The translations under genes and the position numbers were made by a program. From the NCBI GenBank assembly GCA_013152835.1, contig JAADFQ010000237.1, forward strand, positions 138-64,137: a stretch of 64,000 nucleotides of DNA, in the 5' to 3' direction. Under the pieces are notes generated by a model that had not been told where the DNA came from, ran no database searches, and was given only the letters and a program-made list of their open reading frames with translations. The DNA comes from FCB group bacterium. Its GTDB lineage: Bacteria; Fidelibacterota; Marinisomatia; Marinisomatales; J089. Position 1 is the first letter of the stretch. Each line of letters begins with the position of its first letter. This document shows positions 24,994 to 46,686 of the stretch, piece after piece.

Positions 24994-26610
24994 CTAGGGG
25001 ATTGGGATCGATGTTGTCTGGGAAGTTCCGCAGGCGTAATTAAAGGTGAGATCGAAAACAGTTCCGGAGAATCCGCCGGTGACAGCGGCAGTTCCACTGG
25101 TATTTTTATAGATTCGCATTCTTAATGTACGTGATTGATTCACGTTCCAGGTCGGATTTGTATAACTGCAACTGGAAAAAGAGGCCGTTGCCTGAATATT
25201 GCTGTCAATCCGCTGGCGGGGGACTGAACCGCAGGTGGTATTATCCGCCTGCCAAACTATAGTACCGCTGGGGACATCTATCCGTTCCAGATAGGCTGTT
25301 GAAGCGGAAAAATCAGTAGAGACAACGATACTGGTCAGTTCAACAGGAATATAACCCGAATTTTTCAATGGAAAATAAACATTTCGGGCGTTACTGGTTA
25401 CCGTCCCGTTTAACGATAAAGTGGGGTCACTACAAACGCCCGTCGTTGAGAAGGTTACGGTTTGTGTCGGAGCAGTTTGGGACTGAAATTTTATTGTAAA
25501 ACTGGTTCCCCGCATGTCCACTGTGGCTCCGGTACCGTCGGCTGCATCCTTAAATACCAACGGTCCGATCGTCATGTCCCCGGCATAAATCTGAATTTTA
25601 TTCCCCAGGATAATCTGAGCGTCAGTAGGAGATAAAGCGGTACTGTTCACATTCCAGGTCCAATGCGCATTTCCCGCTACCGAAACCGACTCCAGATATG
25701 GTGTGGCGCAATTCCAACAACTTTGGGTAGCAGCAGACCAGCTCAGTGTCATTTTATTGATCGGCATAGTGGTGCTTCCGGAATTACTGATATCAAAATA
25801 GACCTCATTCTGCGTAGCGGTTTCAACCGTAGCTGAACCAGAGACATACGTCACATTTCCATAGGTGGCATATATTGTCATTTCAATATTATCGGATGTC
25901 GTACGATTTCCCGGTGACACGGACATGGATTTTAATACCGTATCACCGGCGGATACGGCGCGAACTTTATGAATGCCAATCGGAACCGAGCCGAGATAAT
26001 AACCGTTGGAAGAATTATAGCTTAACGAATGATAACTGCCGCCATATTGGATTTCTACTTTGCCGCTGGAGCCGTCCACTTCCACATTTTTAGAAGTTAA
26101 TAACCTGACTTTTATCGTATTGCCCAGTAATTCATTTACACTGTTTCCAATTTTTTGAGTAATTGTATCGCCGTCATCAGGAGTATAAATAACGGGCGGT
26201 TGCGTATGATCGGAGGGAACCGAATAGACATAACTGTTGCCCCAGGCATCGGTGAGATAATAATCCGGATCGTCCGCAAAACCGATATCAATATATGGAC
26301 CATCCCATCCGGGAATACCGGATACGTTGGATACTAAATCCCGAAGGGTTGGGGGTAACTGCCCGGTATCGCCGATGTATCCGTAATTGGTACGGATATT
26401 ATTTTCCATGATATTAGGATTTCCAACGATACCTTCGGCTAATATTCGCATTTCGGCAATTGTACCATTCACATTCGCATTGTTAAATACACGAATTAGC
26501 GATCGGGCACCGATACCGCTTAAAATAGCAATGATGATCATCACCATTACGAGTTCAATTAGAGTGAATCCTCGATATTGACCGGGATGGGATTTCATTG
26601 TAGTATCCAT
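24994..26610 (-). CDS. giant modular GspG-like pseudopilin (P1)
   Basis: Class III signal ...MKSHPGQYRG|FTLIELVMVMIIIAILSG (start at 26610 or 26598; the track ORF begins at GTG 26658). GspG-like region GDTGQLPPTLRDLV...GWDGPYI...DAWGNSYVY, followed by ~400 aa of Ser/Thr/Asn-rich beta-modules. Confidence 0.8.
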   Translation of the reverse strand: MDTTMKSHPGQYRGFTLIELVMVMIIIAILSGIGARSLIRVFNNANVNGTIAEMRILAEGIVGNPNIMENNIRTNYGYIGDTGQLPPTLRDLVSNVSGIPGWDGPYIDIGFADDPDYYLTDAWGNSYVYSVPSDHTQPPVIYTPDDGDTITQKIGNSVNELLGNTIKVRLLTSKNVEVDGSSGKVEIQYGGSYHSLSYNSSNGYYLGSVPIGIHKVRAVSAGDTVLKSMSVSPGNRTTSDNIEMTIYATYGNVTYVSGSATVETATQNEVYFDISNSGSTTMPINKMTLSWSAATQSCWNCATPYLESVSVAGNAHWTWNVNSTALSPTDAQIILGNKIQIYAGDMTIGPLVFKDAADGTGATVDMRGTSFTIKFQSQTAPTQTVTFSTTGVCSDPTLSLNGTVTSNARNVYFPLKNSGYIPVELTSIVVSTDFSASTAYLERIDVPSGTIVWQADNTTCGSVPRQRIDSNIQATASFSSCSYTNPTWNVNQSRTLRMRIYKNTSGTAAVTGGFSGTVFDLTFNYACGTSQTTSIPIP

Positions 26611-26852: not shown

Positions 26853-28499
26853 TTGAATAATGGCTCCCCAATCATGAGTGAGCTAAACGTGTTCAGGGAT
26901 CATCGATTTGTATTCAAAGGAATTGCATTGGCCCTGCTTACGTTTATCATCTATTTTCTGTTTCCCGTACCAGGTTTTCGTCGCTGGGACAGTCTTATGT
27001 CGGCTACTATTGTTCATGATTGGGATTCCATGCCCGGATCGGTAATATTTTTCTTTGCCCACACGCTTGTTCTTCCTATCAGTCGACTGATCAGTCTTCT
27101 CCTTCCGGATCTGGACCCGAATGTTGTCGTAAGTTTACGGGAAATTCTGTTTGCTTCCATGAATACCGTTCTCCTTTTTTGGGGATTAAATTGGGTTTTA
27201 GGAAATTCCCGCACGGCTTTCTGGCTGGCAGCAATAACAATCTTCTTTCATGGTCGATGGATGTTTGCCACTCATGGAGAAGAAAAGGAAATTCTCCTGT
27301 TTTTTCAGCAGATTTCTGTGCTTTATACCTTTCATTATTTGCATTGGACAAAATACGCCTCGCAAGTTTTTAATATCTCAACTCCATATATCGCGGAAAT
27401 TATTCTGGGTTTTCTATTGGCAATATCGGTCATGGCACATCTGGAGAATGGGATAATCGTAGTAACCATCGCTATTGTTCTGGGAATTTCCGCAGGAAAA
27501 AAGCAGATAGGCTGGGCACAATTCTGGTTGATCGGAGTCTCGGCTGTCTCCCTGGGTTTGATTTGGTTTGGGATTATTATTGTGAGCGTAAATGGAATTC
27601 GAACTCTTTCCGGTGCCTTGCAATGGTTATTTGAATATCACGTCACCGGGGAGTTTTTTACGATCACTCCGCACTTTTTTAATCAGATGGTAGAAGCCTG
27701 GACCGGGTTCCGACGCTTACTTATCGGGGAGACCGGAGAGGGTCCCTGGATGACCGTAGAAATGGTTGTGGGATTCGGAATGCTCGTTATTACTATCCGG
27801 AAAGCGTGGACTAGGAATAAACGGATTACCGCTTTTTTCCTAATTTTTCTGGGATTGATGACCGTACATTTTTTCTATTGGCTTCCATGGGATCCGGAAC
27901 AATGGGTACCGACCATTATGGCCGGAATGTTCTTAGTCAGCTTAGCGTGGTTTCATGAATACGATAAACCAAGATTACCGATTTTGATCATAATCCTGGT
28001 TGTCTTAATCGCAGCGAATGGTTATCGGTATATCCGCGATGGCGAATCGGTAAAACCATACCGGTCGTTCAGGATCAACGCAGGTCAGCATATTGGAAAA
28101 GTAAGCGATTGGGTTTTACGCAGTTCCCCCTATCCGAATTTGATAGCGGGATTACGACCATATTTACTACAAGATACAATTGTTTTAGTGGATCAACGGC
28201 ATTTGGCTAACCATTTGATAATCTATTCATCAGCCGTTCCTATAGTTACTGCTTATCTGGATAAAACCGACGATGTTTTACATAAAAAGTATCTGTTAAG
28301 CCAATTAAGTCTTGCCGTTTATCGTCCGGAGTTTTCTACGGTTGAACTGAAGGATAAAATAAGGTCGGGAGAATTGGTGTATTATTTAACGGAAGGACCA
28401 ATACCCGGATTGGTTACGGAGCTGAATGCCAGGGCAATACCATTTCCCGGAACGCGCTGTCTTGATTTTCAATTATGGCGGTTGGAGTCTTTGGAATAG
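26853..28499 (+). CDS. polytopic membrane protein (GT-C-like candidate, unassigned)
   Basis: More than 10 hydrophobic segments followed by a ~170-aa soluble C-terminus. TTG start at 26853 or ATG at 26874. Divergent from P1 and convergent with (31-nt overlap) the next gene. Confidence 0.55.
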   Translation: MNNGSPIMSELNVFRDHRFVFKGIALALLTFIIYFLFPVPGFRRWDSLMSATIVHDWDSMPGSVIFFFAHTLVLPISRLISLLLPDLDPNVVVSLREILFASMNTVLLFWGLNWVLGNSRTAFWLAAITIFFHGRWMFATHGEEKEILLFFQQISVLYTFHYLHWTKYASQVFNISTPYIAEIILGFLLAISVMAHLENGIIVVTIAIVLGISAGKKQIGWAQFWLIGVSAVSLGLIWFGIIIVSVNGIRTLSGALQWLFEYHVTGEFFTITPHFFNQMVEAWTGFRRLLIGETGEGPWMTVEMVVGFGMLVITIRKAWTRNKRITAFFLIFLGLMTVHFFYWLPWDPEQWVPTIMAGMFLVSLAWFHEYDKPRLPILIIILVVLIAANGYRYIRDGESVKPYRSFRINAGQHIGKVSDWVLRSSPYPNLIAGLRPYLLQDTIVLVDQRHLANHLIIYSSAVPIVTAYLDKTDDVLHKKYLLSQLSLAVYRPEFSTVELKDKIRSGELVYYLTEGPIPGLVTELNARAIPFPGTRCLDFQLWRLESLE

Positions 28500-30940
28500 A
28501 TTGACCAACCGAAGGAAACCACAAGACCGCCAAACCATACCCAAATCCAGACGGTACGGAATATATCCCGGATGATTTGGGGGAATCGGAGATGCAGCGA
28601 TTCAAGTTTTATCCATCTCCTGCGCATCCAATCCAAATCAATCAGTGTTCGGTCCAGTCCGAGTCGGCTCGAAAGTCGCCAATAATTTCCTGAAAGCAGT
28701 GTTTCCATGTGGGTATAGGAAAAAGGTGTGATCTGAGACCAATCAAGATTCGCTCTCCAATCCGGTTCAACATTTACACCGGAACGGCGATCTGCTCTGG
28801 TCAATAGTGAATCAATCAGATGAACATCCAGGGTTGAATCAAGGGATGCGTAAACAAATCCATGATTTCCATAGTTGTTTCCTGTATTTAAGACCATGGT
28901 TTGGGGATATTCACTGATAATACCGGCCAGAATTTTCATCGCTTGACTGTCGGGATAATCAGGATCGGCCGATCCCTGAGTGGATTCAGCGAATAGTCCT
29001 CCAGGTGCAAGACGCGATTTTAGTAAATTAAAGAAATCCTGATTGTGTAAGAGCATTGTTCCCAGCGTATAAGGTGCGGAAATATCCATCACAATCAAGT
29101 CGTATGTTTTATTGTCAGTGCGTATAAAATGCTTGGCATCATCGATGATGATTTGAGTATTTGTCCAGCGATTAAATTGATTCAAATCTCCCCAGCACTT
29201 TTTAGCAGATTGAACCACATCCGGATCAATTTCCACGAGTGTGGTGGCTTTGGCAAAAGGACCCACCCGTCCCACGGAATACATGGAACCGCACCCCAAT
29301 ATCAGGATATTCAGTTTCTTTTTTTTCTTACTATACTGGTATTGAGCAGGAAGTTCAGCCAGGAAATAGGTGAATTCGGACAAGCCGGTTTCTTGAATCC
29401 ATTCACCCTCCGAATTTGCCTGATATCCGAAATACAGGACACCATTAATGAAGGACCATCGGCCATCGGAGGGAAGACCGGGAAGGGAATGAGTATCCAG
29501 TATCTCAATCGTGTGGTACATGCTGTTCGCCTGATAACATAGCGAGGGGTTACTGTATCCACGCATTGCATAATAATCCTGAGTGACGGCCAGCTTTATC
29601 CCGGGTCCACGACTCAGAAGAAACACCAGAATTCCGATCGCGGCAATCAACTGAAATGTCCATAACTGATGAGGCGCCGATAGCATCCAGAGAATCAGGA
29701 AGAAAATGGCAAAATAAACCGGTTGAATCCACTGCGGGAACCAGAGCGTGAATAAAATCAGTAATCCTGTTCCTGCAACGGCACCGGCTAATTCTCGGGA
29801 ATAGGAGCGAACCAGTTTTAAGGAAGGCGATGTGAATTCGGTGAACCGGGGTAGAAAAAGAGAATAAAAACTTGAAGTAACAAAAGCCGAGAAAAACAGA
29901 ATTCCGATCAAAGCCCACCATCCGGCTCCGAGATAAATTGCCATCGAAGCAAAATATTTAAGAAATAAAAAAATATCCAGATGCAGGAAGAGAGTGACCC
30001 ATCCCAAAGGAAGAAAAAAACGGTTAGGGATTCGTGGTGCGGCCAGATAACCAACGGAATACCCAATAAAGTAGGCCGTGGCTACAATCAGAACGGATAA
30101 TTCTGAAGCAGCCAGTAAAGTTGAGAATTCCCGTGTGATAAAGAACTGAAGCAGAATCAGGTTTACGCCCGATAGGAAGAGAATATTTTTTTTCTTCTTA
30201 ACGGATATCCGGTTTTTGTCAATTGAAAAACCTGTCTTATGAAATGAAATAGCTTCGGATCGTGATAAGCAAAGGGTGACGACCAATACCGATAGTAATG
30301 CTGCCAGACCATAGAATTTAAAGGACAGCATCCCCAAAATTCCCAAAAGTAAAATTGGCAACCAAACCGGATAAGTAAAATAAACCAGCATAATCAAAGC
30401 GAGGGAAATAAAAGGCAGAATAAAGGGAGCACGAACCCCCCATTGTACAAAACCAAGGAGGCTGGTAACAAAACCCAGAATAAAACCATTATTTTCGTGG
30501 AAAAAAAGTTGTGCCGTGGATTGCGATTCAGCCCGGGTTCTGAATAATGCTCCGGCCGGAGCAGCCGTTGCCAGGATCAGAATTCCATAAATGGGTAAAA
30601 AAACGATGGTGGGAATAAATGTGACTAATCCCAGAGCGAGCAATCCGTAGGCAATTGTTGACAATAATAAACTGGTGCGGAATGATTTTGGTTTTGCAAA
30701 TCGGAGATTCAAAACGACACCCGCAATCCAAATTACCGAAATAAAAAAATAGCCCATATACGTGGCTGTATAATAACATTGGAATAAAAAATAACTGGAA
30801 ACCTGGAGCAATCCGAAATGAAAACCGGCCAAGACCGGTAATACTTTCTCTCTCGGATGAAGCAGGGGAAAAGAGATGGGTATTGAATCTCCTTCGGGCA
30901 TTGTTTTTCCCGAAGCGGTTATCTTATGGCCAACTGACAA
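28469..30940 (-). CDS. polytopic membrane domain fused to spermidine-synthase-like (PABS/class I MTase fold) domain
   Basis: The N-terminal ~480 aa are highly hydrophobic. The C-terminal part has LNILILGCGSMYSVGR...LVEIDPDVVQSAKK...YDLIVMDISAPYT...APGGLFAES, a PABS-like layout in which GGGDG is replaced by GCGSMY. Confidence 0.7.
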   Translation of the reverse strand: MSVGHKITASGKTMPEGDSIPISFPLLHPREKVLPVLAGFHFGLLQVSSYFLFQCYYTATYMGYFFISVIWIAGVVLNLRFAKPKSFRTSLLLSTIAYGLLALGLVTFIPTIVFLPIYGILILATAAPAGALFRTRAESQSTAQLFFHENNGFILGFVTSLLGFVQWGVRAPFILPFISLALIMLVYFTYPVWLPILLLGILGMLSFKFYGLAALLSVLVVTLCLSRSEAISFHKTGFSIDKNRISVKKKKNILFLSGVNLILLQFFITREFSTLLAASELSVLIVATAYFIGYSVGYLAAPRIPNRFFLPLGWVTLFLHLDIFLFLKYFASMAIYLGAGWWALIGILFFSAFVTSSFYSLFLPRFTEFTSPSLKLVRSYSRELAGAVAGTGLLILFTLWFPQWIQPVYFAIFFLILWMLSAPHQLWTFQLIAAIGILVFLLSRGPGIKLAVTQDYYAMRGYSNPSLCYQANSMYHTIEILDTHSLPGLPSDGRWSFINGVLYFGYQANSEGEWIQETGLSEFTYFLAELPAQYQYSKKKKKLNILILGCGSMYSVGRVGPFAKATTLVEIDPDVVQSAKKCWGDLNQFNRWTNTQIIIDDAKHFIRTDNKTYDLIVMDISAPYTLGTMLLHNQDFFNLLKSRLAPGGLFAESTQGSADPDYPDSQAMKILAGIISEYPQTMVLNTGNNYGNHGFVYASLDSTLDVHLIDSLLTRADRRSGVNVEPDWRANLDWSQITPFSYTHMETLLSGNYWRLSSRLGLDRTLIDLDWMRRRWIKLESLHLRFPQIIRDIFRTVWIWVWFGGLVVSFGWSIYSKDSNRHN

Positions 30941-31133
30941 TAATAAGAGTCAAACTCAATATAACCAAAATCGCACCGGTGATATAGCGATGGGCCAGAG
31001 CACCTTCGTCCGTTGTAATGATTCGATTCCCCAGTTCGTTTAATCTTTTTACAAATTCCGGATTAAACATAAGCAGCAGTCCGAACACCAGAGCGATAGC
31101 GGCGATAATTGGTATGAAAGGTATGATACTCAT
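30924..31133 (-). CDS. 69-aa two-TM protein (paralog of 37802-38011)
   Basis: Two hydrophobic helices flank FNPEFVKRLNELGNRIITTDEGALAHRYITGA. It is alignable to the other 69-aa ORF (FFPRLLLQLSQWANQIIFRDDIFIKKNRATGA). Confidence 0.55.
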   Translation of the reverse strand: MSIIPFIPIIAAIALVFGLLLMFNPEFVKRLNELGNRIITTDEGALAHRYITGAILVILSLTLIIVSWP

Positions 31134-31186: not shown

Positions 31187-32782
31187 TTAAGGCATGGTAA
31201 ATGATATTGTTTGATCCGATCCGCATTTGAAATGGAGCGTCAGCGTAAAATTTGCTCCGGTAACATCTGCTTTGGTGCTGCCGGTAGCGTTAAGATAGAA
31301 GTCCATCCGGTTCAACAGGATATATCCACCGCCGGAAATAAAGGCTGGGGGCTGCGTTTTACAAAAAGTGATATCCACGCCATTCACATTATCCACCAAC
31401 TGCCGTGATTGATTACCGCACCAGGATTGGTTGGCCTGCCAGTAAATCGTGGAAGCGTTAATAAAGGATATGATATTAAGATACGGACTTGGACTCACAT
31501 CACATTTAATTTGCATACCGGTAATAGTAGTGGCTGCACTCCCTGTATTATGGATTCGAAGGCGAACACGATATAGTTGTGGTTTGGTTAGATTCGAATA
31601 AGAAATTACTGCCGGTGAACAGGTCCCACTGGTTGAAAAACTCACCGTTTGGTTTGGTGTCAGACTGGAAAAGAAAGATATTCGGAAGGTAACGTCATTC
31701 ATGGGTTGAACGGTTCCGTTTCCGTCCACCTGGTCCTGGAAAGCAATGGGTCCGATAGTGGTATTGCCGGAGGGTAGTGAAAGGGTATTATCCAACACCA
31801 ACCGGGCTCCGGTAGAGGCCAGAGCACTTCGATTTATCGTATTCCATTTCCAGTAGTCGGTTCCGTTAACGGTAATATTGGCCATATAGGCGTAATCGCA
31901 CTCCCAACAAAGGGAATTGGACCAGCTCACACTGATCTGAGAAATATCCATGATAGTATTACCGGAATTGTTCACGGTAAACGTGAGCTCGGAATTATTT
32001 GTACCTCCGAGGGAAGCTGTTCCGGCCACATAAGTGAGTGTCCCAAAGGTAGGATTAACCGTGTATTCCAACCCTTCCGTCGGACTCGTCGTAGAATTAT
32101 TCGGTCCTACGCTGAGATGTCGTAAAGAAGTATCACCGGAAACAATAAACCGGAGCGTTGCAATGCCTATTGGTACGGAGGAAATATTATATCCCAGAGT
32201 TTTTGAGTAAGTCATTGTTTGCCAGGGGTCACCGCCGTATTGGATCTGAACGGTGGCATCGCTGTCACGGAGAGGATAACCATCGCCGTTTCGTACTCGC
32301 AAAGCGACAGTGTTATTTAATATTTCGGATTTATCATTGGCAATCTTTAACACAATAGGATCACCATCACCGGGACTGGTTAATGTTACCGGGCCGGAAG
32401 TCGGTACGGAATAAGTTATGGTTGTATTCCAGCCATCCCGAAAGAGAGCGGTAGGATCTTCTTTAATTCCCGTGTAATCACCATAAGGACCATCCCAGCC
32501 GGCAACTCCCGGGTCTGTAAGCAAATCGTTTAAACTGGTTGGAAATTGACCGGTGTCGCCTACATAACCATAATCAATACGTACACCGTTTTCCACGATT
32601 TTCGGATTTCCCACGATGGCGTATTTGATTTTGTTCATATTTGCAATGGTCAGATTAAAATTTCGGTTCGTGCTGATACGGGCCAGGGATCGGAATCCTA
32701 CAGCGCTGAGAATACCGATAATAACAATTACCATGACTAACTCAATGAGTGTGAAACCGAGATATGATTTAGATTGCTTCAC
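31187..32782 (-). CDS. giant modular GspG-like pseudopilin (P2)
   Basis: A GTG at 32782 gives the leader MKQSKSYLG|FTLIELVMVIVIIGILSA and removes the 37-nt overlap implied by ATG 32827. GspG-like GDTGQFPTSLNDLL...GWDGPYG...DGWNTTITY, followed by beta-modules. Confidence 0.8.
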   Translation of the reverse strand: MKQSKSYLGFTLIELVMVIVIIGILSAVGFRSLARISTNRNFNLTIANMNKIKYAIVGNPKIVENGVRIDYGYVGDTGQFPTSLNDLLTDPGVAGWDGPYGDYTGIKEDPTALFRDGWNTTITYSVPTSGPVTLTSPGDGDPIVLKIANDKSEILNNTVALRVRNGDGYPLRDSDATVQIQYGGDPWQTMTYSKTLGYNISSVPIGIATLRFIVSGDTSLRHLSVGPNNSTTSPTEGLEYTVNPTFGTLTYVAGTASLGGTNNSELTFTVNNSGNTIMDISQISVSWSNSLCWECDYAYMANITVNGTDYWKWNTINRSALASTGARLVLDNTLSLPSGNTTIGPIAFQDQVDGNGTVQPMNDVTFRISFFSSLTPNQTVSFSTSGTCSPAVISYSNLTKPQLYRVRLRIHNTGSAATTITGMQIKCDVSPSPYLNIISFINASTIYWQANQSWCGNQSRQLVDNVNGVDITFCKTQPPAFISGGGYILLNRMDFYLNATGSTKADVTGANFTLTLHFKCGSDQTISFTMP

Positions 32783-32790
32783 AGTATAGT

Positions 32791-34407
32791 TTAAAGCGTG
32801 AAAGCGATCGTTTGGGTATTTCCGCATTGAAGAATGAACTGGAGGGTATAGGATTGTCCAACTTTTACGGGAACATTGGTGGTTCCGCTCAGATTTTTCC
32901 GGATACGAATATCCACTGTTGCCGTTCCACCGGCATTGATTGTGGGTAAGGCATAGGTACAGATTGAAAAATCGGCAGTACCTACAGCGTTATTGGCAAT
33001 TGTTGGGCGGGCTACGCTGCTGCAAGCGGCTACATCAGCTCGCCAGACATTTGTGGCGTTGAATTGAATTCGTTCCAGATAAGCGGTAGAGGTCGTGATA
33101 TCAGAAGAAACGGTCATGGAAGTAACTGTGACCGGTAGGACTCCCGGATTCTGGATCGTTAGATGGAAGCGGGCGTTATTTACTCGTGAAGCGGCTACAC
33201 TCACTACCAAACTGGGAGCCGGGCAGGTTGTTGTATTATCAAAAGTTATCGTTTGGGAAGGGGCGGTCGAGGATTCGAATTTGATTGTAAACCGGGTAGC
33301 ATTCATATTGATCGTATTGGCTGTAGATCCGTCAGTCCCGTCCAGAAATATTAACGGTCCGATTGAATTTACTCCGGTATAGAGCGACATGCTGGCATCT
33401 AAAATCACTTGGGCACCGCTGGGTACCAGGGACGAACGTCCGTAGGTATTCCATTTCCAATAAGTCAATGTCTTTTTGACTTCGGAAAGGTAGGCGGATT
33501 GACAATTCCAGCAGTCATTGGGCAGTTTGTCCCAGGTAATGGTCATTTTACTAATCTTGAATGTAGGTGTCCCCGTATTCGTAACAGTAAACGAAACCTG
33601 ATTATTTCCTGCCCCGGAAACAGATGCTGAACCGGAAACATAGGTTAAATTACCATAATCGGGATAGACCGTCATTTTAATCGTTCCGCCGGTCGTACCA
33701 TTCGCTTCTTCCACCGATAGTGTTTTATAAACCGTATCGCCTGCGGAAATGGCCCTTAACTGTCTAAGTCCAATAGGAACGGTAGAAATTTTAAAACCGT
33801 TTGCTGAAGAGTAAGTCAGAGGAGTCCATGCATTGCTATAGTAGACGGCCACGGTTCCGTTCGTTCCGTTTATCTCAACACCGTTTTCCCGGTAAAGGCG
33901 GACTTTGACCGTATTGTTCAGGATGGCATTCAAACTTTCCGCGATTTTCACCGTGATTGTATCGCCATCGGCAGGAGTCCAGATTTTGGGAGTCTTGGTC
34001 CCGACGGTAGGTAGTACATACCGGTAGGATTGACCAAAGGCATCCCGTTTGAAAAAGTTGGGATCACCGGTATAACCGGCTTCCACATAAGGACCGGCCC
34101 ATCCTGGTTTACCGGAAGAGTTCTCGAGTAAATCATCCAGGGTGGGAGGCATGACACCTGTATCACCCACATAACCAAAACTGGTTCTCACATTATTCTG
34201 GATAATGTTGGGATCGCCAACGATGGATTTTTTTAAGTTCTGCATCTCCTCATACGTTTCATTAAATTTGGCATTGAGGGTGATGCGAGTGGTTGTTCTG
34301 ACGGCGACTCCGGCCAGAATTCCCATAATCACAATGACGATGATTAATTCAATGAGGGTGAATCCGCCCCTGGAATCGGTGATCGTCATGCTTGCGAATC
34401 TTGGCAT
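32791..34407 (-). CDS. giant modular GspG-like pseudopilin (P3)
   Basis: ...MTITDSRGG|FTLIELIIVIVIMGILAG (alternative start 34389). GDTGVMPPTLDDLL...GWAGPYV...DAFGQSYRY, followed by two ~120-aa modules. At least 10 N-x-S/T sequons. Confidence 0.8.
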   Translation of the reverse strand: MPRFASMTITDSRGGFTLIELIIVIVIMGILAGVAVRTTTRITLNAKFNETYEEMQNLKKSIVGDPNIIQNNVRTSFGYVGDTGVMPPTLDDLLENSSGKPGWAGPYVEAGYTGDPNFFKRDAFGQSYRYVLPTVGTKTPKIWTPADGDTITVKIAESLNAILNNTVKVRLYRENGVEINGTNGTVAVYYSNAWTPLTYSSANGFKISTVPIGLRQLRAISAGDTVYKTLSVEEANGTTGGTIKMTVYPDYGNLTYVSGSASVSGAGNNQVSFTVTNTGTPTFKISKMTITWDKLPNDCWNCQSAYLSEVKKTLTYWKWNTYGRSSLVPSGAQVILDASMSLYTGVNSIGPLIFLDGTDGSTANTINMNATRFTIKFESSTAPSQTITFDNTTTCPAPSLVVSVAASRVNNARFHLTIQNPGVLPVTVTSMTVSSDITTSTAYLERIQFNATNVWRADVAACSSVARPTIANNAVGTADFSICTYALPTINAGGTATVDIRIRKNLSGTTNVPVKVGQSYTLQFILQCGNTQTIAFTL

Positions 34408-34463
34408 ACAAAGGACCTGGCTGGGGGGATCTCAGCCAGGTTGGCCTATTGCTGATTCAAAGA

Positions 34464-37232
34464 TTAGTGACCATGATCATGGTGTCCGCCGCCACCGTGG
34501 TCGTTATGGTTATTTCCACCTGTACCCGGTGTTGTGAAGGTCAACGTATAATCACAGTTATCCCCCACACCAGTAAGTTCCACCGAGAAATCAACACCGC
34601 GCATATCCACGTAACTACCACCGGTAAGTGCATCCTTGAATTTGTAAAATACCAAGGTAACCCGGTCATTCACATCCAGGAAGATGTAATTATTCAAGTC
34701 AAGAACGCCGCCACTGGATAAGCGATCATCACTACCGGCATCCCAGTATGTTGCACTTCCTACCTTGAATTTGGATGCGTAGGCGTCGGATTCATTCCAG
34801 AAACCAGTGATCTGTTTGATCTGGATCGGACTGTCCCCTGTGTTTTTCACGTCAAATTCGACGGTGTAATGCCGTGAGCCGGACACGTCGACATTATTGT
34901 TGTAAATGCCTAATGAGGGACCCGAACGACTATCCGTATCAAATTCGAAGGGATATTGCGTACCGTCGGTAGCGATAAAGGTGACCTTAATGTGGTGACC
35001 GCGCATATCCAGTCGATCGCCGTTGCCATTCACATGATCCTGTTCAACGGAGCACTCAAAACTGTCTTCCTGGTTTGGTGTGCCGCACTCATCGCCGTGA
35101 GCCTTGTGAGCTTCCCAGGCATCAGTGATAATACAGAGAACCTGGGGATTTTCGGTGTCGCCATCCGGATAATGAGTAATTGTAATTTTACCGTCTCCAT
35201 CGCTGTCCGGACAATCCGGTGGAGAATAATGGGATCCGGAATTACCACCGCCATGATTCCCATGATCATTATGGCTTCCATGGCCGTTATGGTTTCCATG
35301 ACCGTGATCATTGTGGTTGTTGCATCCACTGCCCTGGTTTGTACAACTATATCGATGGATATATCCCGAACTTGAATTGGATTCATCATCTAAATAATAG
35401 CCATGACCGTTTTCGGTGATAACCGCATTGGTTGCCGTAATGCTGATCCACCATTGTCCCAGGGCCAGACCGCCGGAACGGTTATCATTGTAGAGATTGA
35501 CCGTCATGTTGTTAGAAGAAATATCATATTGCTTTCCATTATCCATTAAATATGATGATCCATTCACCGTGAGACCGTTCTGATTTCCATTCCCTTTTGG
35601 CTTTACATGAACCCAAACCGCCGAACCCTGATAATCGGATGCGGATTGTGTGAGGTCTTCGCGAGTGATGAGACTGCCGTCGGTCTTCACCAGATAAAAC
35701 TGGTGATTACTGTTATTATTAGGATTAAGGTTGATAGAACCACCGATCGTCGATGTGGTAGTGGGGTCAGAATAATGGTCTCCCCAATCCGATCCGCGGG
35801 AAGTCGTAAAGCCTTTCAGCTCTACGGTTTTCGTAGCATCGCAGATGGAGAATAAATCATCAAGGGCCAGGTATTGACCGGAAGCTACCCGGCAGTCTGT
35901 ATTTTTCCAGTAGGATGTACCGCCCAGTTTTATTTCTTCAAGATAAGGAATAGTGCAGGTTGTATCCCATTCAACGATCATTCCACTGATCGTGATACAG
36001 CAATCCCCGGGATTGGTGATATCAAAGGATATGTCCTGACGATCATGTCCGGATGTTTGCAGTGTTCCACTGGCATAGATTAATGATCCCACCGTCGGAG
36101 GCGTTCCCGGAGCGGTGAAGGAAATAAGTTGGGTAGGGGCAAGGTCAGAGTAGAGATAGAACTGGAAAGTTGTTCCATCCAATTGAATAGGGTCGGCCGC
36201 ACCGGTACGAGCATCGGCGTACTTGACTTCCGTTACATTGAGTGGCGTGCCGGGAGTAACCAATAAGGTGCTTCGCAGGACCAATTCCTGGCCGGACACT
36301 GCCCGTACGCCGTTATTATCGACCAGATAATCCCAGTATGTGCTACCGCCGACTTTAAAGGTTTCCAGATAAGGTGTTTGATTACACCAATTGGAGCCGG
36401 ACCATCCAAAGGATAAACTTTTAATGTTAAATTGACAATCTCCGGTTGCATCGGCCTGAAAAGAAACAATGTCATTCAGGGTTCCGCTGAGCGCGGCGGA
36501 ACTGGAATATTGAATGGTGCCATAATCACAGGTAATGGGCGCCGGGTCGCAAGGCGGGTCGGGACATGCCGGTGGATGAAGCGTGTCAGCCCCACCATTA
36601 GCAACAACAGTGACCTCCAGTCCGCAGGCCGGAAAACCATCGCCGTAGAAGCCGAGGGATGAACTATAGTCCAGTTTAATATCTCCACAACCGTAATTGA
36701 CATAAACATCGATAGATGATGAATCCAAAGGAAGACCGTTATCGTCGGTAAACTGATATTGAACGGAATTGTTGAGTGCATCGGTAATTTCGTTAGACAT
36801 ATCCAAGGTAATGGGGTCAGCACCATTTCCCCCTGCCGTTGAAGTTAACGTCAAATTCTGTGTATCCCAGATGTACGGGTTACCCCAGGGATCATAAAGA
36901 TAATCCAGGGGGTTATTTACAAACGTAACATCAAGGTAGGGTCCCAGCCAACTGCAATACTGATTCCCGCCGGGGTCTTGCAATAAGTCCTGAAGTGTAG
37001 TCGGAATTGAACCATTATCGCCGATAAAACCGCAATCACCCTCAGTACAGCCGACAATTCCACATCGGATTTGTTCCATTTCCGATAATGCCTCCGCTTC
37101 CCAACTGGACGGTGTCAGAACAACGATGACTTGTATGGCTGTCGCTGCCAGGATACCCAAAACAACGATTAAAGCGACCAGTTGAAACAGTGTAAAACCT
37201 TTAGTGTTCTTGGTTGTGCGAATTCTTTGCAT
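34464..37232 (-). CDS. 922-aa modular pseudopilin with Gln5 and His-rich tracts (P4)
   Basis: MQRIRTTKNTKG|FTLFQLVALIVVLGILAA, then a GspG-like region GDNGSIPTTLQDLL...WLGPYL...DPWGNPYIW. At least three of the shared modules. Internal tract CNNHNDHGHGNHNGHGSHNDHGNHGGGNSGSH and C-terminal tract GGNNHNDHGGGGHHDHGH. Confidence 0.8.
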   Translation of the reverse strand: MQRIRTTKNTKGFTLFQLVALIVVLGILAATAIQVIVVLTPSSWEAEALSEMEQIRCGIVGCTEGDCGFIGDNGSIPTTLQDLLQDPGGNQYCSWLGPYLDVTFVNNPLDYLYDPWGNPYIWDTQNLTLTSTAGGNGADPITLDMSNEITDALNNSVQYQFTDDNGLPLDSSSIDVYVNYGCGDIKLDYSSSLGFYGDGFPACGLEVTVVANGGADTLHPPACPDPPCDPAPITCDYGTIQYSSSAALSGTLNDIVSFQADATGDCQFNIKSLSFGWSGSNWCNQTPYLETFKVGGSTYWDYLVDNNGVRAVSGQELVLRSTLLVTPGTPLNVTEVKYADARTGAADPIQLDGTTFQFYLYSDLAPTQLISFTAPGTPPTVGSLIYASGTLQTSGHDRQDISFDITNPGDCCITISGMIVEWDTTCTIPYLEEIKLGGTSYWKNTDCRVASGQYLALDDLFSICDATKTVELKGFTTSRGSDWGDHYSDPTTTSTIGGSINLNPNNNSNHQFYLVKTDGSLITREDLTQSASDYQGSAVWVHVKPKGNGNQNGLTVNGSSYLMDNGKQYDISSNNMTVNLYNDNRSGGLALGQWWISITATNAVITENGHGYYLDDESNSSSGYIHRYSCTNQGSGCNNHNDHGHGNHNGHGSHNDHGNHGGGNSGSHYSPPDCPDSDGDGKITITHYPDGDTENPQVLCIITDAWEAHKAHGDECGTPNQEDSFECSVEQDHVNGNGDRLDMRGHHIKVTFIATDGTQYPFEFDTDSRSGPSLGIYNNNVDVSGSRHYTVEFDVKNTGDSPIQIKQITGFWNESDAYASKFKVGSATYWDAGSDDRLSSGGVLDLNNYIFLDVNDRVTLVFYKFKDALTGGSYVDMRGVDFSVELTGVGDNCDYTLTFTTPGTGGNNHNDHGGGGHHDHGH

Positions 37233-37801: not shown

Positions 37802-38011
37802 TTATGTGAATCGATGGAAATAAATCCATAACAACCAGAGTCCCGCGATGATTAAGCCGGCGCCGGTGGCCCGGTTTTTTTTGATGAAAATATCATCCCT
37901 GAAAATAATCTGGTTGGCCCATTGGGAAAGTTGAAGAAGCAATCGGGGAAAAAACAGGTAGGCGATACCAATACCCAAAACCAAAATGCCGACGATAATA
38001 ACAGAAATCAT
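37802..38011 (-). CDS. 69-aa two-TM protein (paralog of 30924-31133)
   Basis: Same length and topology as 30924-31133, with the shared pattern F-P-x5-L-x4-N-x-I-I-x2-D-x6-R-x2-G-A. Confidence 0.55.
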   Translation of the reverse strand: MISVIIVGILVLGIGIAYLFFPRLLLQLSQWANQIIFRDDIFIKKNRATGAGLIIAGLWLLWIYFHRFT

Positions 38012-41326: not shown

Positions 41327-43435
41327 CTATTCGTCGTCTGAATAGTTCACAGAATCTATCCATGAATCAATGGATGTGATCTCAGGATTTATTCTTTTTG
41401 CCAACTGTAAGCTTAAGAAAGCTGAGTCTTGGTTCCCAAGATAATAATAATTCCGGCCCATGAGATACCAGGCATACCCGTAGGTTGAGTCTGTTTTTAT
41501 CACTGATTTCAAATTTCCGAGGGATTGCTTGTACTGTCCTAATTGTTGGAGCGCATCGCCAAAAGCAACTTTTGCGGATAAATCTCTGGGATCCCACTTG
41601 ATAAATTTTTTAAACCATACCAATGATGATTCCGGTTCTTCAAATTGCAGCCAGGTTTCGGCGCGATTGATCCATAAATCCGGATTATTTGGATAGAGTT
41701 CCAGCGCCCGGTTAAAAAATCGGTTCATTTTCGGAACGGTAAGCCACATATCCCGCCAGCCGGGCATGGTGGTATCCAGGACCGTTAGTTTATCCAAAGA
41801 AAACCCTGATGACACCAACTGCAAAAGATGGCGTTTATAAAATTCTCCCCGTACCTGCCAGTAATTCCATGTTAGGGGGCCCAGTTCGGTACTTCTCTCA
41901 AATTCTTTCTCCGCTGAATTCAATAAAATCCATTTCTTCAAATGATCCTTTTCCCGAATTGCCTGGTTACTATATACTGATCCAAGATGCATATAATTTT
42001 CACCCCTCCGGGATTCCAAAACCGTAGCAATCTGATAATTTTTCAGGGCGGAATAATAATCTTCTGCATCAACGGCTCTATCCCCTTGCTGAGTAAAATA
42101 CTGAGCCAGAGGTTGAATAACACTGAATACGACCAGCGTTATTAAAACGATTATCTGAAAAAGCCGTTGCGTAGGGACTGCGATTACTTTTCCCGTAATA
42201 GGTATTTGTTGAATAGAAGCATTTGGATGATGGCGGAGAAAAATAGCGATAAATAAAAGAAAGAGGGTCAAAATACCCGGGATGTATAAATGATAATCCA
42301 CAAAAGTATGGATTAGCACAGCCAGTGCACCCACACCCATACCGGTAACCGGTGCGGATATTTTATCCAATTGTTTATGTAAACGGAACCAGGAGAAACC
42401 TTTCCCCGCCAGAAAAATCAGAAAAATAAGAAATAAACCCAGACCAATGATTCCCAGTTCCTCAAAATATTGAAGATAATCATTATGGGCAAAATCAAAG
42501 CGAATTCCAGGAGGTAGCCATTGTGTATTCGTGATATGAAATGTTCTGAAGCCGTATCCGATCCAGGGATGATCTTTGGCGAGATGAAAAGTCTGAGCCC
42601 AGATTCGTTGTCTGCCGAAGGTATCGGGATCGGTCAGGCTTCCCATCCGGGAAATAATTTGACTGCCGGGTATGGCGCTCAGCCCAACAATAACCAGAAT
42701 CATACTCAGGGCCACTCTTTTTAATTTTAGTGCGAATGTCTGAATTAATTGGTAGCGATGAAGAATGTATAGATTTAACACTACCGATGTTAAGAAAAAG
42801 GCCAGCCAACCAGCACGGGAATAGGTAGTACCCAGTACCCATTCACCAATAAATAATAGCAAAAACAAGATTCGTTCATACTTTCGTTTCGGGGAATAAA
42901 GATACTTCCAGAAAATCATAGGCCAGATCAGAATTATGTATCCGGCGAAGGTGTTTGGCCAGACAAAAAAACCATGGGAACGGGCGAAAAAACTACCCTG
43001 AATTGTATTTGCATTGATTTCAGTGAAAAATTGCCAGATTCCTATAAGCATTTCGATTCCGAACAATACAAGAATGAACTTGACGATGAAGGATTCATCC
43101 AGCCGATCTGGATAATTCACTGTTGCAAAAAAGAGAATAAAAGCTGCCAGATATGTTAACGATTTATAATCGGTAGCAAACGCGTCGATGGTCCAGATAT
43201 TTGAAAGTAATATCCAGAAAATGAATGCGGCAAAAATAATAATAAGGATATTGTTACGGATTGTGTACTCTTTATTTTTATTGCATAAATAATAATAAAT
43301 CCCCAATAATCCCGATGCGCTACATAGCAGAATGGTGTTATACAAAGGCGTTTCCGGACCGCGGTCAAAAGGAATGAAAAGAAAAACCAAACCCCAGAAA
43401 AGAAGGAAGAGATTGTTAATCATCCGTTTCCCCAA
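41327..43435 (-). CDS. O-antigen-ligase-like (Wzy_C) membrane protein with C-terminal TPR domain
   Basis: Polytopic, with SRAGWLAFFL and the ligase hallmark FAHNDYLQYFEELGIIG. The C-terminal ~250 aa are TPR-like (ALELYPNNPDLWINRAETWLQ..., AFGDALQQLGQYKQS..., AWYLMGRNYYYLGNQDSA...). Confidence 0.8.
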   Translation of the reverse strand: MGKRMINNLFLLFWGLVFLFIPFDRGPETPLYNTILLCSASGLLGIYYYLCNKNKEYTIRNNILIIIFAAFIFWILLSNIWTIDAFATDYKSLTYLAAFILFFATVNYPDRLDESFIVKFILVLFGIEMLIGIWQFFTEINANTIQGSFFARSHGFFVWPNTFAGYIILIWPMIFWKYLYSPKRKYERILFLLLFIGEWVLGTTYSRAGWLAFFLTSVVLNLYILHRYQLIQTFALKLKRVALSMILVIVGLSAIPGSQIISRMGSLTDPDTFGRQRIWAQTFHLAKDHPWIGYGFRTFHITNTQWLPPGIRFDFAHNDYLQYFEELGIIGLGLFLIFLIFLAGKGFSWFRLHKQLDKISAPVTGMGVGALAVLIHTFVDYHLYIPGILTLFLLFIAIFLRHHPNASIQQIPITGKVIAVPTQRLFQIIVLITLVVFSVIQPLAQYFTQQGDRAVDAEDYYSALKNYQIATVLESRRGENYMHLGSVYSNQAIREKDHLKKWILLNSAEKEFERSTELGPLTWNYWQVRGEFYKRHLLQLVSSGFSLDKLTVLDTTMPGWRDMWLTVPKMNRFFNRALELYPNNPDLWINRAETWLQFEEPESSLVWFKKFIKWDPRDLSAKVAFGDALQQLGQYKQSLGNLKSVIKTDSTYGYAWYLMGRNYYYLGNQDSAFLSLQLAKRINPEITSIDSWIDSVNYSDDE

Positions 43436-46275: not shown

Positions 46276-46686
46276 TTATGGAGCCGAAGTTGAGCGGGTA
46301 CCGATTGTTCCGGTACTGGACGAATAAGACCAATAATATTTACTCGCGTCGCTTCGCTGGTGATAAACATAATTATTTGTGGAGTTAAATCCCCATGTAT
46401 CATTTCCGGCCGGCGTGGGTGCGGTGGAGGTGTATCCTGTGGGTGTTTGATCCAAACCGTCAAAAGGATCGGTAGGATAAACCTGACCGTTTCCGGAGGC
46501 CATCTCATTAACACTATAGGTGTAAACACCGGATCGTAAGCCACCAATTACGCCATCTTCAGCCGATATATGGGCTTGATTTGTTAGATTTGCAAACTTA
46601 GGTATAGCGACAGCTGCCAGAATACCTAAGATGACAATTACCATGACCAATTCGATCAGGGTAAATCCTTCCTGGTTACGTTTCAT
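46276..46686 (-). CDS. type IV pilin / pseudopilin (136 aa), probable major subunit
   Basis: AGGAG precedes the ATG. MKRNQEG|FTLIELVMVIVILGILAAVAIPKF is a classical class III signal. The C-terminal part is Ser/Thr/Tyr-rich and has no Cys. Confidence 0.9.
   Translation of the reverse strand: MKRNQEGFTLIELVMVIVILGILAAVAIPKFANLTNQAHISAEDGVIGGLRSGVYTYSVNEMASGNGQVYPTDPFDGLDQTPTGYTSTAPTPAGNDTWGFNSTNNYVYHQRSDASKYYWSYSSSTGTIGTRSTSAP

Follow-up and report, generated by a model that had tools for sequence, protein, structure and literature searches.

A 64,000-nucleotide stretch of DNA from an FCB group bacterium (contig JAADFQ010000237.1, positions 138 to 64,137; hereafter the window) encodes four large pilins, P1 to P4, which by sequence carry a previously undescribed module family. 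We think it probable, with moderate confidence, that these proteins are modular type IV pilins in which the tandem module forms an adhesive stalk borne on a filament. Nine module copies are present in the four paralogues at this one locus, with two each in P1, P2 and P3 and three in P4 (Table 1). P1 and P3 are 46% identical over their full length, P2 and P3 are 39% identical, and the small pilin P5 shares 37-39% identity with the heads of P1-P3 in blastp. Synteny is kept in three related contigs, and a related-locus query with a single protein returned two syntenic loci from metagenome-assembled genomes.

Table 1. Features of the pilin locus, with positions in the window
Feature	Position (nt)	Strand	Description and evidence
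P1	24994-26658	-	554-aa modular pilin; ORF translation
P1 module M1	25441-25863	-	family HMM
P1 module M2	24997-25431	-	family HMM
P2	31187-32827	-	546-aa modular pilin; ORF translation
P2 module M1	31628-32047	-	family HMM
P2 module M2	31190-31612	-	family HMM
P3	32791-34407	-	538-aa modular pilin; ORF translation
P3 extra beta domain	33670-33930	-	residues ~160-246, between head and M1; CarboxypepD_reg-like; AF2 strands 165-246
P3 module M1	33232-33657	-	residues 251-392; family HMM 119 bits, profile positions 1-134
P3 CWNC (C299, C302)	33502-33513	-	loop between strand 4 (ends W292) and strand 5 (A-Y-L-S-E)
P3 C395	33223-33225	-	Cys at M1/M2 junction; inferred partner of C299
P3 module M2	32794-33219	-	residues 397-538, at protein C-terminus; family HMM 82.8 bits
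P4	34464-37232	-	922-aa modular pilin; Gln for Glu at mature position 5
P4 copy a	36108-36524	-	
P4 copy b	35754-36092 and 34932-35081	-	split copy
P4 nested insertion in copy b	35082-35753	-	~225 aa; profile broken between positions 103 and 100
P4 copy c	34527-34922	-	followed by His-rich tail
P5	37245-37772	-	small GspG-like pilin, 175 aa, no modules, immediately upstream of P4
PilC-like platform protein	46844-48073	-	T2SSF E 1.5e-54
Sigma-54 activator	48076-49293	-	Sigma54_activat E 1.6e-66
PilB/MshE-type assembly ATPase	49494-51146	-	T2SSE E 5.5e-143, MshEN
Prepilin peptidase, A24 family	51155-51946	-	A24_N_bact E 8.5e-37, Peptidase_A24 E 2.8e-15
PilT-like ATPase	53822-54928	-	T2SSE
Secretin	54935-56308	-	Secretin E 3.6e-46
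Two ORFs, 176 and 184 aa	56305-56835, 56838-57392	-	ORF list only
PilM-PilN fusion	57382-60405	-	PilM_2 E 5.5e-33, PilN

Pilin identity and assembly machinery

The N_methyl model (PF07963) scored P1, P2 and P3 at 27.2, 24.6 and 31.2 bits, respectively (E 1.4e-7 for P3), all above the Pfam cut-off of 21.2 bits, and TIGR02532 was also above its cut-off in the NCBIfam scan. No N_methyl match was reported for P4. The prepilin motif reads GFTLIE in P1-P3 and P5 and GFTLFQ, with Gln5, in P4. The heads of P1-P4 each gave sub-threshold T2SSG or GspG-type matches, and P5 matched T2SSG (E 3e-6), N_methyl and TIGR01710 (E 1e-15). The heads of P1-P5 thereby resemble GspG (PF08334, TIGR01710), although GspG lacks C-terminal modules and all P1-P5 scores fall under the equivalog cut-off. 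Judged by the class III signal, that is, a cleavage motif plus a hydrophobic helix, P1-P4 are pilins. The AF2 model of full-length P3 has the layout of a modular pilin, with a long N-terminal helix and head followed by separate all-beta domains, and it matches tandem Ig-like proteins. The order of domains in P3 is prepilin signal and N-terminal helix, GspG-like head, CarboxypepD_reg-like beta domain, M1 and M2.

A dedicated peptidase and assembly machinery are encoded near the pilins, within the window (Table 1), and the A24 peptidase would be the enzyme that processes P1-P5. Besides P5, a second small pilin, PilA-like, is encoded at 46276-46686. PilT-like ATPases and PilM/PilN set the locus apart from those of type II secretion and are instead characteristic of type IV pili. 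A sigma-54 promoter was sought upstream of P5, P1 and the membrane-protein gene and none was found, the best candidate agreeing with the consensus at 7 of 11 positions and lacking the GG/GC pair.

A repeated module in the four large pilins

An earlier note on this DNA, made from the letters alone, described a duplicated beta module of about 120 aa with a W...YLE...YW core in all four large pilins. The peptides it quoted are all present in the translations of four minus-strand ORFs, and blastp, HMM and hhalign comparisons agree that the internal duplication is real and common to the four proteins. In blastp, P3 residues 249-349 aligned with P4 residues 379-470 (E 8e-9) and P3 residues 253-377 with P4 residues 773-886 (E 3e-5). 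An HMM of the M1 copies scored the M2 copies at 17.6-26.3 bits as compared with 10.0 bits for the best of 2000 shuffled M2 sequences, and chance similarity was rejected as the cause of the repeat. Alignment of the M1 and M2 alignments with hhalign gave a probability of 97% (E 1.2e-10) over 118 columns, so that the profile check proposed for the repeat supports it. We conclude from these sequence comparisons that the module arose by internal duplication. The repeat unit is nevertheless longer than first described, at about 140-145 aa, and the span given for the two P3 modules, 32794-33615 (P3 residues 265-538), has to be extended, with the true start lying about 14 residues upstream at residue 251 (nt 33657).

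The W...YLE...YW core and the N-x-G strand hold throughout the family. Over 144 modules, conservation is 97% for N277, 62% for W317 (with a further 23% Phe), 61% for Y306 and 58% for W292 (with a further 23% Tyr). The signature of the module comprises the N-x-G strand; W, A-Y-x-E and V/Y-W; R-x-x-S-G; and D-M-x-G-x-x-F-T-x-x-F. In the AF2 models the module is an all-beta sandwich, and P3 residues 251-395 were modeled with ten strands at a pLDDT of 95.9 and a pTM of 0.89.

Copy b of P4 is interrupted, with profile positions 2-103 at residues 381-493 and positions 100-135 at residues 718-767. The insertion between them combines a tract rich in Gly, Asn and His with a Cys/His motif, DGDGKITI-H-P-G...AH-AHGDECG, that is also found in the homologues P0010 and P0021. 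It had no Pfam or NCBIfam match, and a PDB search with the insert motif returned none. The split of copy b also occurs in two orthologues, where the profile segments are about 240 and about 108 residues apart, and the P4 orthologues at loci L001 and L002 keep both the GFTLFQ motif and the split copy. As for the extra beta domain of P3, 25 of 116 family members gave a CarboxypepD_reg match (best E 1.8e-9), as did P0012 at residues 159-233, and the domain was not detected in P3 itself.

Distribution of the module family

The family search was an exhaustive HMMER search of 1.84 billion proteins with a profile of the window's module copies, a check that the earlier note had proposed; it yielded 155 cluster representatives at E ≤ 1e-3, of which 35 reached E ≤ 1e-10. 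Most of the matched proteins carry a prepilin motif. A word-indexed protein search was nearly blind to the family, giving 2 and then 3 matches. The C-terminus lies no more than 15 aa beyond the last module in 117 of 133 matches. Among 116 full-length matches, 44 had N_methyl, 16 had T2SSG and two had PilX_N. One protein, P0134, scored 40.5 bits with Pilin_N (cut-off 25.2), which marks it as an archaeal-type pilin. The module is carried by bacterial pilins of the GspG, PilX and GFSLVE types and by this archaeal-type pilin. We conclude that, as far as sequence can tell, the module family is almost confined to the extreme C-terminus of pilin-like proteins, which come from diverse bacteria and include at least one archaeal-type pilin.

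Scans of P1-P5, the 116 full-length homologues and 59 isolated modules revealed no Pfam or NCBIfam family that reached its threshold over the module. PDB sequence searches with two module profiles and with the isolated P0073 module returned nothing significant, and nothing describing these proteins or the module turned up in a literature search. Sampled members are annotated as "prepilin-type N-terminal domain" or "hypothetical protein", or are unnamed.

We considered whether the module could belong, in diverged form, to one of the familiar Pfam Ig-like families such as CARDB, DUF1573/ASH, Big or fn3, in which case it would be nothing new. The earlier note had seen a resemblance to CARDB in the first strand, and CARDB (PF07705) and DUF1573/ASH do share a first strand of the V-x-F-x-V-x-N-x-G form, with weak partial matches to DUF1573, CARDB and HYDIN-type Ig domains. 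However, the first strand alone matches (E 0.05-0.4, about 25 residues) and the rest of the module does not. For CARDB the match was weak and partial, at 11.8 bits against a cut-off of 22.7 (E 0.29, P3 residues 261-299), CARDB was found at E ≤ 1 in two of 59 modules, and membership in that family was rejected because the match is below cut-off and covers part of the module only. Matches to such Ig families are far under cut-off and extend over about 25-40 residues, each family is matched by at most five of the 59 modules, and the large repetitive proteins among the representatives of our search match profile positions ~12-49 only. Taken together, we regard membership in a known Ig-like family as very unlikely.

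Possible relationship to the outer domain of archaeal pilins

The Pfam family matched most often was Arch_flagellin (PF01917), with nine of 59 modules at E ≤ 1 and a best E of 2.2e-6. The matching proteins identified individually were P0073, P0030, P0017 and P3. P0073 gave the best of these individually identified matches, aligning residues 267-375 with positions 63-160 of the 162 in the model at E 3.2e-5 and 24.8 bits, short of the gathering cut-off of 29.5 bits. P0030 aligned with positions 61-101, and M2 of P3 (residues 410-536) aligned weakly with positions 65-162 (E 0.022, 15.5 bits). We conclude that the recurrent colinear matches support a relation at the superfamily level only. UpsA and ArlF also gave weak matches. 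In a Foldseek search with the module, the top PDB match was 8fk7, the archaeal pilus of P. calidifontis, and the top 50 also held the archaellins 5tfy and 9eq7 together with FlaF and FlaG; these matches were not significant, with a best E of 1.8e-3 and a TM of about 0.4. Sequence and model comparisons are thus consistent, at a sub-threshold level, with the Ig-like outer domain of archaellins and archaeal type IV pilins being the nearest known relative of the module.

Several features of the archaeal outer domain (PF01917; 8fk7, 5tfy, 9eq7; FlaF/FlaG) resemble those of the module: the two are similarly sized beta-sandwiches, the colinear matches, though sub-threshold, cover everything after the helix in the Pfam model, and the module family includes an archaeal Pilin_N protein. 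In contrast, archaeal subunits have a single outer domain directly after the helix, whereas in P1-P4 the module is repeated and comes after both an alpha/beta head of bacterial type and a further beta domain. That the module is a true homologue of the archaeal outer domain is a tentative proposal, which we hold as somewhat less probable than its negation. If it were true, bacterial and archaeal pilins would share a globular domain beyond the N-terminal helix, through ancient inheritance or through inter-domain transfer of a pilin "decoration" module, and this would contradict the current statement that homology between bacterial and archaeal pilins does not extend past the helix (Kreutzberger et al. 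2023, PMC10334743).

A cysteine motif in some of the modules

The CW(N/E)C motif reported for P1-P3 is present in these proteins, and it is confined to their M1 and that of close relatives rather than being family-wide. A CxxC occurs in 14 of 144 modules, 71 of the 144 are without any Cys, and ten further modules keep the first Cys alone, as a "CW" pair. The CWNC loop of P3 corresponds to an insert state of the family profile, and DSSP assigns module residues 45-55 of the model to a loop. Four homologues (P0012, P0015, P0019 and P0020) have exactly two Cys per protein, aligned with C299 and C395. Relatives bearing the CxxC have three Cys in M2, and those with the first Cys only have none in M2. 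The six-Cys pattern of P1 and P3 is kept in the L001 and L002 orthologues. Because the two-Cys homologues keep the first motif Cys and the module-end Cys, the Cys counts suggest that C299 pairs with C395 in a structural disulfide from loop to module end rather than belonging to a redox or metal center.

The earlier note had offered a vicinal disulfide or a metal or redox site, and had set aside a haem site. On haem it was right, as no His follows the second Cys (CWNCQ, CWNCA, CWECD) and a haem c site is thereby excluded. A vicinal disulfide in the strict sense is impossible because the two Cys are not adjacent. A thioredoxin-like redox CxxC was also rejected, because the module is all-beta and the motif sits in a loop that separates two of its strands. 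M1 of P1-P3 strictly retains the motif, as do the L001 and L002 orthologues of these proteins, and the His-rich tracts of P4 could bind metal, and yet a functional redox or metal-binding center strikes us as quite improbable given the few modules that have the motif, its position within an inserted loop, the retention of the first Cys alone elsewhere, the pairing of its position with the module-end Cys in the two-Cys homologues and a fold that is a beta-sandwich and not thioredoxin-like. Under the structural disulfide that we prefer, the CW(N/E)C loop would be a lineage-specific elaboration in which the loop is most likely pinned by its first Cys to the module-end Cys, and the second motif Cys, having come with the three M2 Cys, would complete an even set of structural disulfides.

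Proposed role of the modules

We propose that the A24 peptidase cleaves the prepilins and that their N-terminal helices would then enter a filament built by the PilB/MshE-type ATPase, the PilC-like protein, PilMN and the secretin, in which P1-P4 are probably of low abundance or located at the tip. GspK is a tip pseudopilin without Glu5. P4 shares the loss of Glu5 with GspK and, by this analogy, would be the most distal subunit. The GspG-like heads of P1-P4 are paralogous to one another and bear no resemblance to GspH/I/J/K or PilV/W/X, so that the analogy to a minor-pilin tip complex may fail. The tandem modules could form a rigid beaded stalk off the filament with an aromatic-rich distal end for adhesion, possibly to glycans. 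The module thus probably serves as a stalk or in adhesion.

An alternative arrangement would make P1-P4 the major, stoichiometric components of a thick sheathed filament, with modules packing laterally as an outer sheath in the manner of archaellin outer domains. This would fit the similarity of the module to the archaellin and archaeal pilin outer domain and the GspG-like head that all four paralogues have in common with the small P5. However, at least three extra beta domains per subunit would make the filament much wider than a typical type IV pilus and hard to fit with export through the secretin, and the module-free small pilins, P5 and the PilA-like ORF, are more plausible major subunits. 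We therefore consider a sheathed filament of this kind improbable.

It is also conceivable, if unlikely, that the modules are CBM-like carbohydrate-binding domains and the giant pilins lectin pilins, with W292, Y306, W317, the CW loop and YWKWN as a glycan platform. The family profile matched CBM3 structures weakly (6sl4 at E 0.015; 1nbc, 4b9f, 2xbt and 4jo5 at E 0.3-0.5), CBM49 matched M1 of P3 weakly (E 0.013-0.047), and glycan binding is documented elsewhere for extra minor-pilin modules (PMC9934059, PMC11623550). No CBM match was significant, CBM49 reaching 14-16 bits against a cut-off of 23.4, the Foldseek top 50 of the high-confidence model contained no CBMs, and the strand alternation suggests that the conserved aromatics are within strands and likely face the core. 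With respect to the archaeal fold link discussed above, the PDB sequence profile search gave these weak CBM3 matches instead, which counts against that link.

Modular type IV pilins and the significance of the module

Modular pilins have been surveyed by Raynaud et al. (2021, PNAS, PMC8179133), who describe many grafted modules without a database signature that are probably exposed at the tip; examples are S. sanguinis PilB and PilC, which bear a vWA and a lectin module, respectively, and ETEC CofB with a beta-repeat and a beta-sandwich (PMC8179133). P1-P4 share with these proteins an N-terminal pilin module and linker-grafted C-terminal modules. They differ in that the grafted module belongs to an undescribed family present in two to three tandem copies, one with a nested insertion, and in that four paralogous modular pilins, all with GspG-like heads, are encoded in one operon.

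Much of the versatility of type IV pili comes from grafted modules, many of which domain databases still miss. One such module is now defined by a confident fold model, a conserved signature and clear boundaries. A family model would reveal pilin tails that are presently unannotated and would provide a concrete test of an outer domain shared by bacterial and archaeal pilins, and the locus, being compact, lends itself to studies of what the module binds.

P1 to P4 are pilin-like proteins with tandem copies of one module

The heads of P1–P4, the four large paralogues, and of the small module-free pilin P5 all gave T2SSG or GspG-type matches in Pfam and NCBIfam scans, and the prokaryotic N-terminal methylation motif scored above the Pfam cut-off in P1–P3. 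A motif scan found GFTLIE in P1, P2, P3 and P5 and GFTLFQ in P4 (~37180-37200, minus strand), where position 5 of the mature protein has Gln in place of the conserved Glu. This Gln is kept in the orthologues on the related contigs L001 and L002 and also occurs in the homologues P0003, P0010 and P0033. Gln in place of Glu5 is a known feature of the tip pseudopilin GspK, which P4 recalls in this respect. P1–P3 share 39-46% full-length identity, and P4 aligned with them by blastp over its first ~450 residues and then in two further segments.

Module boundaries were set from alignments and a family HMM (table), with M1 and M2 denoting the first and second copies in P1–P3. The peptides quoted in an earlier note, which had recognized the module by eye, are all present in the translations, and its claim of an internally duplicated module common to P1–P4, with three copies in P4, is borne out by blastp, HMM and hhalign. 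The unit measured ~140-145 residues instead of ~120, and its true start lies ~14 residues earlier than proposed. Besides the collinear alignment, P3 M1 matched P4 by blastp at E 8e-9 and 3e-5, making the three P4 copies visible. Self-blastp missed the divergent M2, but profile methods do detect it: an M1-type HMM scored the four M2 sequences at 17.6-26.3 bits, compared with a maximum of 10.0 bits among 2000 shuffled M2 sequences, and hhalign aligned M1 with M2 over 118 columns, the whole module (probability 97%, E 1.2e-10). Once its insertion is removed, copy b of P4 forms a bridge between the two types (M1 HMM 74 bits, M2 HMM 36 bits). Based on these scores, the hhalign result and the bridging copy, we conclude that the internal duplication is real.

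Over 144 aligned modules, in P3 numbering, the most widely kept residues were N277 (97%), F354 (92%), G331 (85%), M368 (79%), F377 (77%), G345 (76%), F373 (72%), F273 (70%), W317 (62%, plus 23% Phe), Y306 (61%) and W292 (58%, plus 23% Tyr). The W...YLE...YW core and the N-x-G strand singled out earlier therefore mark real, family-wide positions.

A nested insertion of ~225 residues breaks P4 copy b between profile positions 103 and 100; orthologues on two related MAG contigs show this split too, their gaps being ~240 and ~108 residues long. The insertion contains a Gly/Asn/Ser/His-rich tract, HGHGNHNGHGSHNDHGNHGGG, and a Cys/His motif, DGDGKITITHYPDGDTENPQVLCIITDAWEAHKAHGDECG, with no match in Pfam, NCBIfam or PDB; a clearer form, ICH.PPGNP.N..T..I...AW.AH..HGD.CGPC, is found in P0010 and twice in P0021. 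After the last module, P4 ends in a His-rich tail, GGNNHNDHGGGGHHDHGH, which could bind metal.

Coordinates of the pilin genes, modules and neighbouring features
Feature	Position	Strand	Description
P1	24994-26658	minus	ORF, 554 aa
P2	31187-32827	minus	ORF, 546 aa
P3	32791-34407	minus	ORF, 538 aa; module region under study is the C-terminal half
P4	34464-37232	minus	ORF, 922 aa
P5	37245-37772	minus	small relative, 175 aa; precedes the four large paralogues
P1 M1	residues 266-406
P1 M2	residues 410-554
P2 M1	residues 261-400
P2 M2	residues 406-546
P3 M1	residues 251-392		linker Cys at 395
P3 M2	residues 397-538
P4 copy a	residues 237-375
P4 copy b	residues 381-493 plus 718-767
P4 copy c	residues 771-902
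P4 nested insertion	35082-35753	minus	P4 residues about 494-717, inside second module
P4 His-rich tail	34464-34526	minus	C-terminus
P4-P3 gap	34408-34463		56 nt
Response-regulator/GGDEF protein	23299-24201	minus	right after P1
Large multi-pass membrane proteins	26853-28499; 28469-30940	plus; minus	between P2 and P1
69-aa ORFs	37802-38011; 30924-31133	minus	just upstream of P5; just downstream of P2
Wzy_C/TPR protein	41327-43435	minus	702 aa, O-antigen-ligase domain and TPR repeats
Laminin_G_3 (concanavalin-like) protein	45305-46147	plus	280 aa; adjoins PilA-like pilin on opposite strand
PilA-like pilin	46276-46686	minus	136 aa, directly downstream of PilC
PilB with MshEN domain	49494-51146	minus	domain match
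PilM-PilN fusion	57382-60405	minus	1007-aa ORF; PilM residues 459-812, PilN residues 914-1002

The module defines an unclassified pilin-associated family

Pfam and NCBIfam scans found no family covering the module at threshold, and the P3 modules gave only weak matches to Arch_flagellin (E 0.022), CBM49 (E 0.047), CARDB (E 0.29) and DUF1573 (E 0.4). A lectin or CBM function for the modules is a rival, less likely reading. A search of 5.8 billion proteins by word index brought up just two close relatives, and a source lists one of them as a partial prepilin-type protein of a Fidelibacterota MAG. An exhaustive HMMER search of 1.84 billion cluster representatives, using a profile of eleven module copies (nine from the window, two from P0001), recovered a family of 155 proteins at E<=1e-3, with 35 at E<=1e-10 and 11 at E<=1e-30, confirming that the earlier observation extends from the locus to a whole protein family.

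We analysed 134 members, leaving out very large repetitive proteins that matched the first strand alone. The last module ends <=15 residues from the C-terminus in 117 of 133 members, and near-complete copies number one in 92 members, two in 26 and three in 9. A Pfam scan of 116 members found N_methyl in 44, CarboxypepD_reg-like in 25, T2SSG in 16 and PilX_N in 2. The closest relatives have a GspG-like head and 2-3 modules; other architectures comprise ~390-aa proteins with a head, a CarboxypepD_reg-like domain and one module with a 'FSDGS..FT' end, pilins with a GFSLVE-type N-terminus and 'LIEEIKI.G..VWK' modules, and the PilX_N proteins. P0134 is an archaeal-type pilin (Pilin_N 40.5 bits against a 25.2 cut-off), and P0071 and P0120 gave sub-threshold DUF7266 and DUF7289 matches. 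Where members have public names, these are only 'prepilin-type N-terminal cleavage/methylation domain-containing protein' or 'hypothetical protein'.

Predicted fold and putative archaeal relatives

An AlphaFold2 model of full-length P3, built with only six sequences (mean pLDDT 70), begins with a long N-terminal helix, followed by a small head and, beyond it, all-beta domains, and Foldseek returned generic tandem Ig-like matches for it (integrin alpha legs, transglutaminase C-terminal barrels, macroglobulin domains). A model of P3 M1 from an alignment of 59 module sequences reached pLDDT 95.9 and pTM 0.89 and has ten strands; CWNC falls in a loop of 11 residues that joins strand 4, whose last residue is W292, to strand 5, which starts at Y306. 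The up-and-down strand order would place this loop at the same end of the sandwich as the conserved aromatics and the C-terminal tail. Of the CARDB/Ig-like folds to which the module had been likened earlier, CARDB itself is only a weak, partial match.

Arch_flagellin (PF01917) matched more modules than any other Pfam family (9 of 59 at E<=1, the lowest E being 2.2e-6; 7 of 116 full-length members at E<=0.01), and its matches are colinear with the part of the Pfam model after the N-terminal helix. P0073 residues 267-375 match positions 63-160 of 162 (E 3.2e-5, 24.8 bits, cut-off 29.5), P3 M2 matches 65-162 and P0030 61-101. In NCBIfam, three modules were weakly similar to UpsA, an archaeal pilin (best 2e-4), and two to ArlF. 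When the module model was compared with the PDB by Foldseek, the top match was 8fk7, the flagellar-like archaeal type IV pilus of Pyrobaculum calidifontis (E 1.8e-3, probability 1.0, TM 0.39/0.41), with FlaF (4p94), FlaG (5tuh) and archaellins (5tfy, 9eq7) within the top 50. Because three independent weak signals agree, we consider the archaeal Ig-like outer domain to be the module's nearest known relative, at the level of superfamily and not membership.

Cysteines and the CxxC motif

CW[NEGQ]C occurs in 14 of the 144 modules, all in the closest subfamily and always as an insert relative to the family profile; ten more keep the first Cys alone, followed by Trp, and 71 lack any Cys. P0012, P0015, P0019 and P0020 have exactly two Cys in the whole protein, one aligning with C299, the first of the motif, and the other with C395, in the module-end 'xxC(A/S/D)P'. 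In a secreted protein, the simplest arrangement of two Cys is a single disulfide, which would point to an ancestral staple from loop to C-terminus. When the second motif Cys is present (P0004, P0009, P0011, P1–P3), M2 has three Cys, and relatives without it have none in M2; since the two co-occur, the second Cys appears to have arrived with an odd number of M2 Cys. Six mature Cys stand at conserved positions in P1, P3 and orthologues. These patterns suggest either that a disulfide joins the two modules or that three structural disulfides were re-paired. As the motif lacks the His of CxxCH, a haem c site is rejected, as the earlier note had held, and it lies outside any thioredoxin fold, so a thioredoxin-like CxxC is rejected too. 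Nor is it vicinal in the strict sense, one of the options raised earlier, and a redox or metal centre is less likely than a structural disulfide.

Gene neighbourhood and proposed role

The window encodes type IV pilus-like machinery, including three PilT-like ATPases, a secretin, PilC and a second, half-size T2SSF protein, an A24 prepilin peptidase and a sigma-54 activator. A motif scan found no canonical minor pilins (GspH-K, PilV/W/X types). The PilM-PilN ORF has an N-terminal extension of ~450 aa without a family match. The Wzy_C/TPR gene sits within the pilus gene cluster, and its product may be an enzyme for O-glycosylation of pilins; Ser, Thr and Asn are abundant in the modules.

The order P5, P4, P3, P2, two multi-pass membrane proteins, P1 is kept in L001 and L002, and L003 retains its downstream portion, which runs from the membrane protein with the spermidine-synthase-like domain as far as P1. 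Of the two membrane proteins, one lacks a Pfam match and the other has a C-terminal spermidine-synthase-like domain; the position of the latter is kept in all three contigs, and an ORF resembling the former in size and strand was seen in L001 only. The neighbourhood of the response-regulator/GGDEF protein is conserved in L001 and L003, and this neighbour together with the MshEN domain hints at c-di-GMP control of the pilus. The two 69-aa ORFs share a two-hydrophobic-segment layout and weak mutual similarity and may be small membrane proteins that are paralogous to each other. The P4-P3 gap contains a perfect 8-bp inverted repeat, CCTGGCTG...CAGCCAGG, which is not followed by a T-run and may form a hairpin within the operon.

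P1–P4 would be processed and then built into a filament, probably as low-abundance or tip subunits because of their bulk; modular pilins elsewhere have been argued to be such subunits (PMC8179133). A sheath in which P1–P4 are major subunits is a less likely alternative; the PilA-like pilin could itself be the major subunit. P4, with Gln for Glu5, would be the distal-most subunit. Module function is inferred: the modules would make up a stalk stapled by disulfides, with adhesion mediated by its aromatic-rich distal end.

The earlier interpretation is, overall, partly supported. We show that P1–P4 are pilin-like proteins with tandem beta-sandwich modules of an unclassified pilin-associated family, and we regard them as modular pilins, a known kind, carrying an undescribed module. 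Separately from the likeness to archaeal outer domains, the module family was found in an archaeal Pilin_N protein with a profile of only the window proteins and one close metagenomic relative (P0001). It is a possibility that bacterial and archaeal pilin outer domains are connected through this module.
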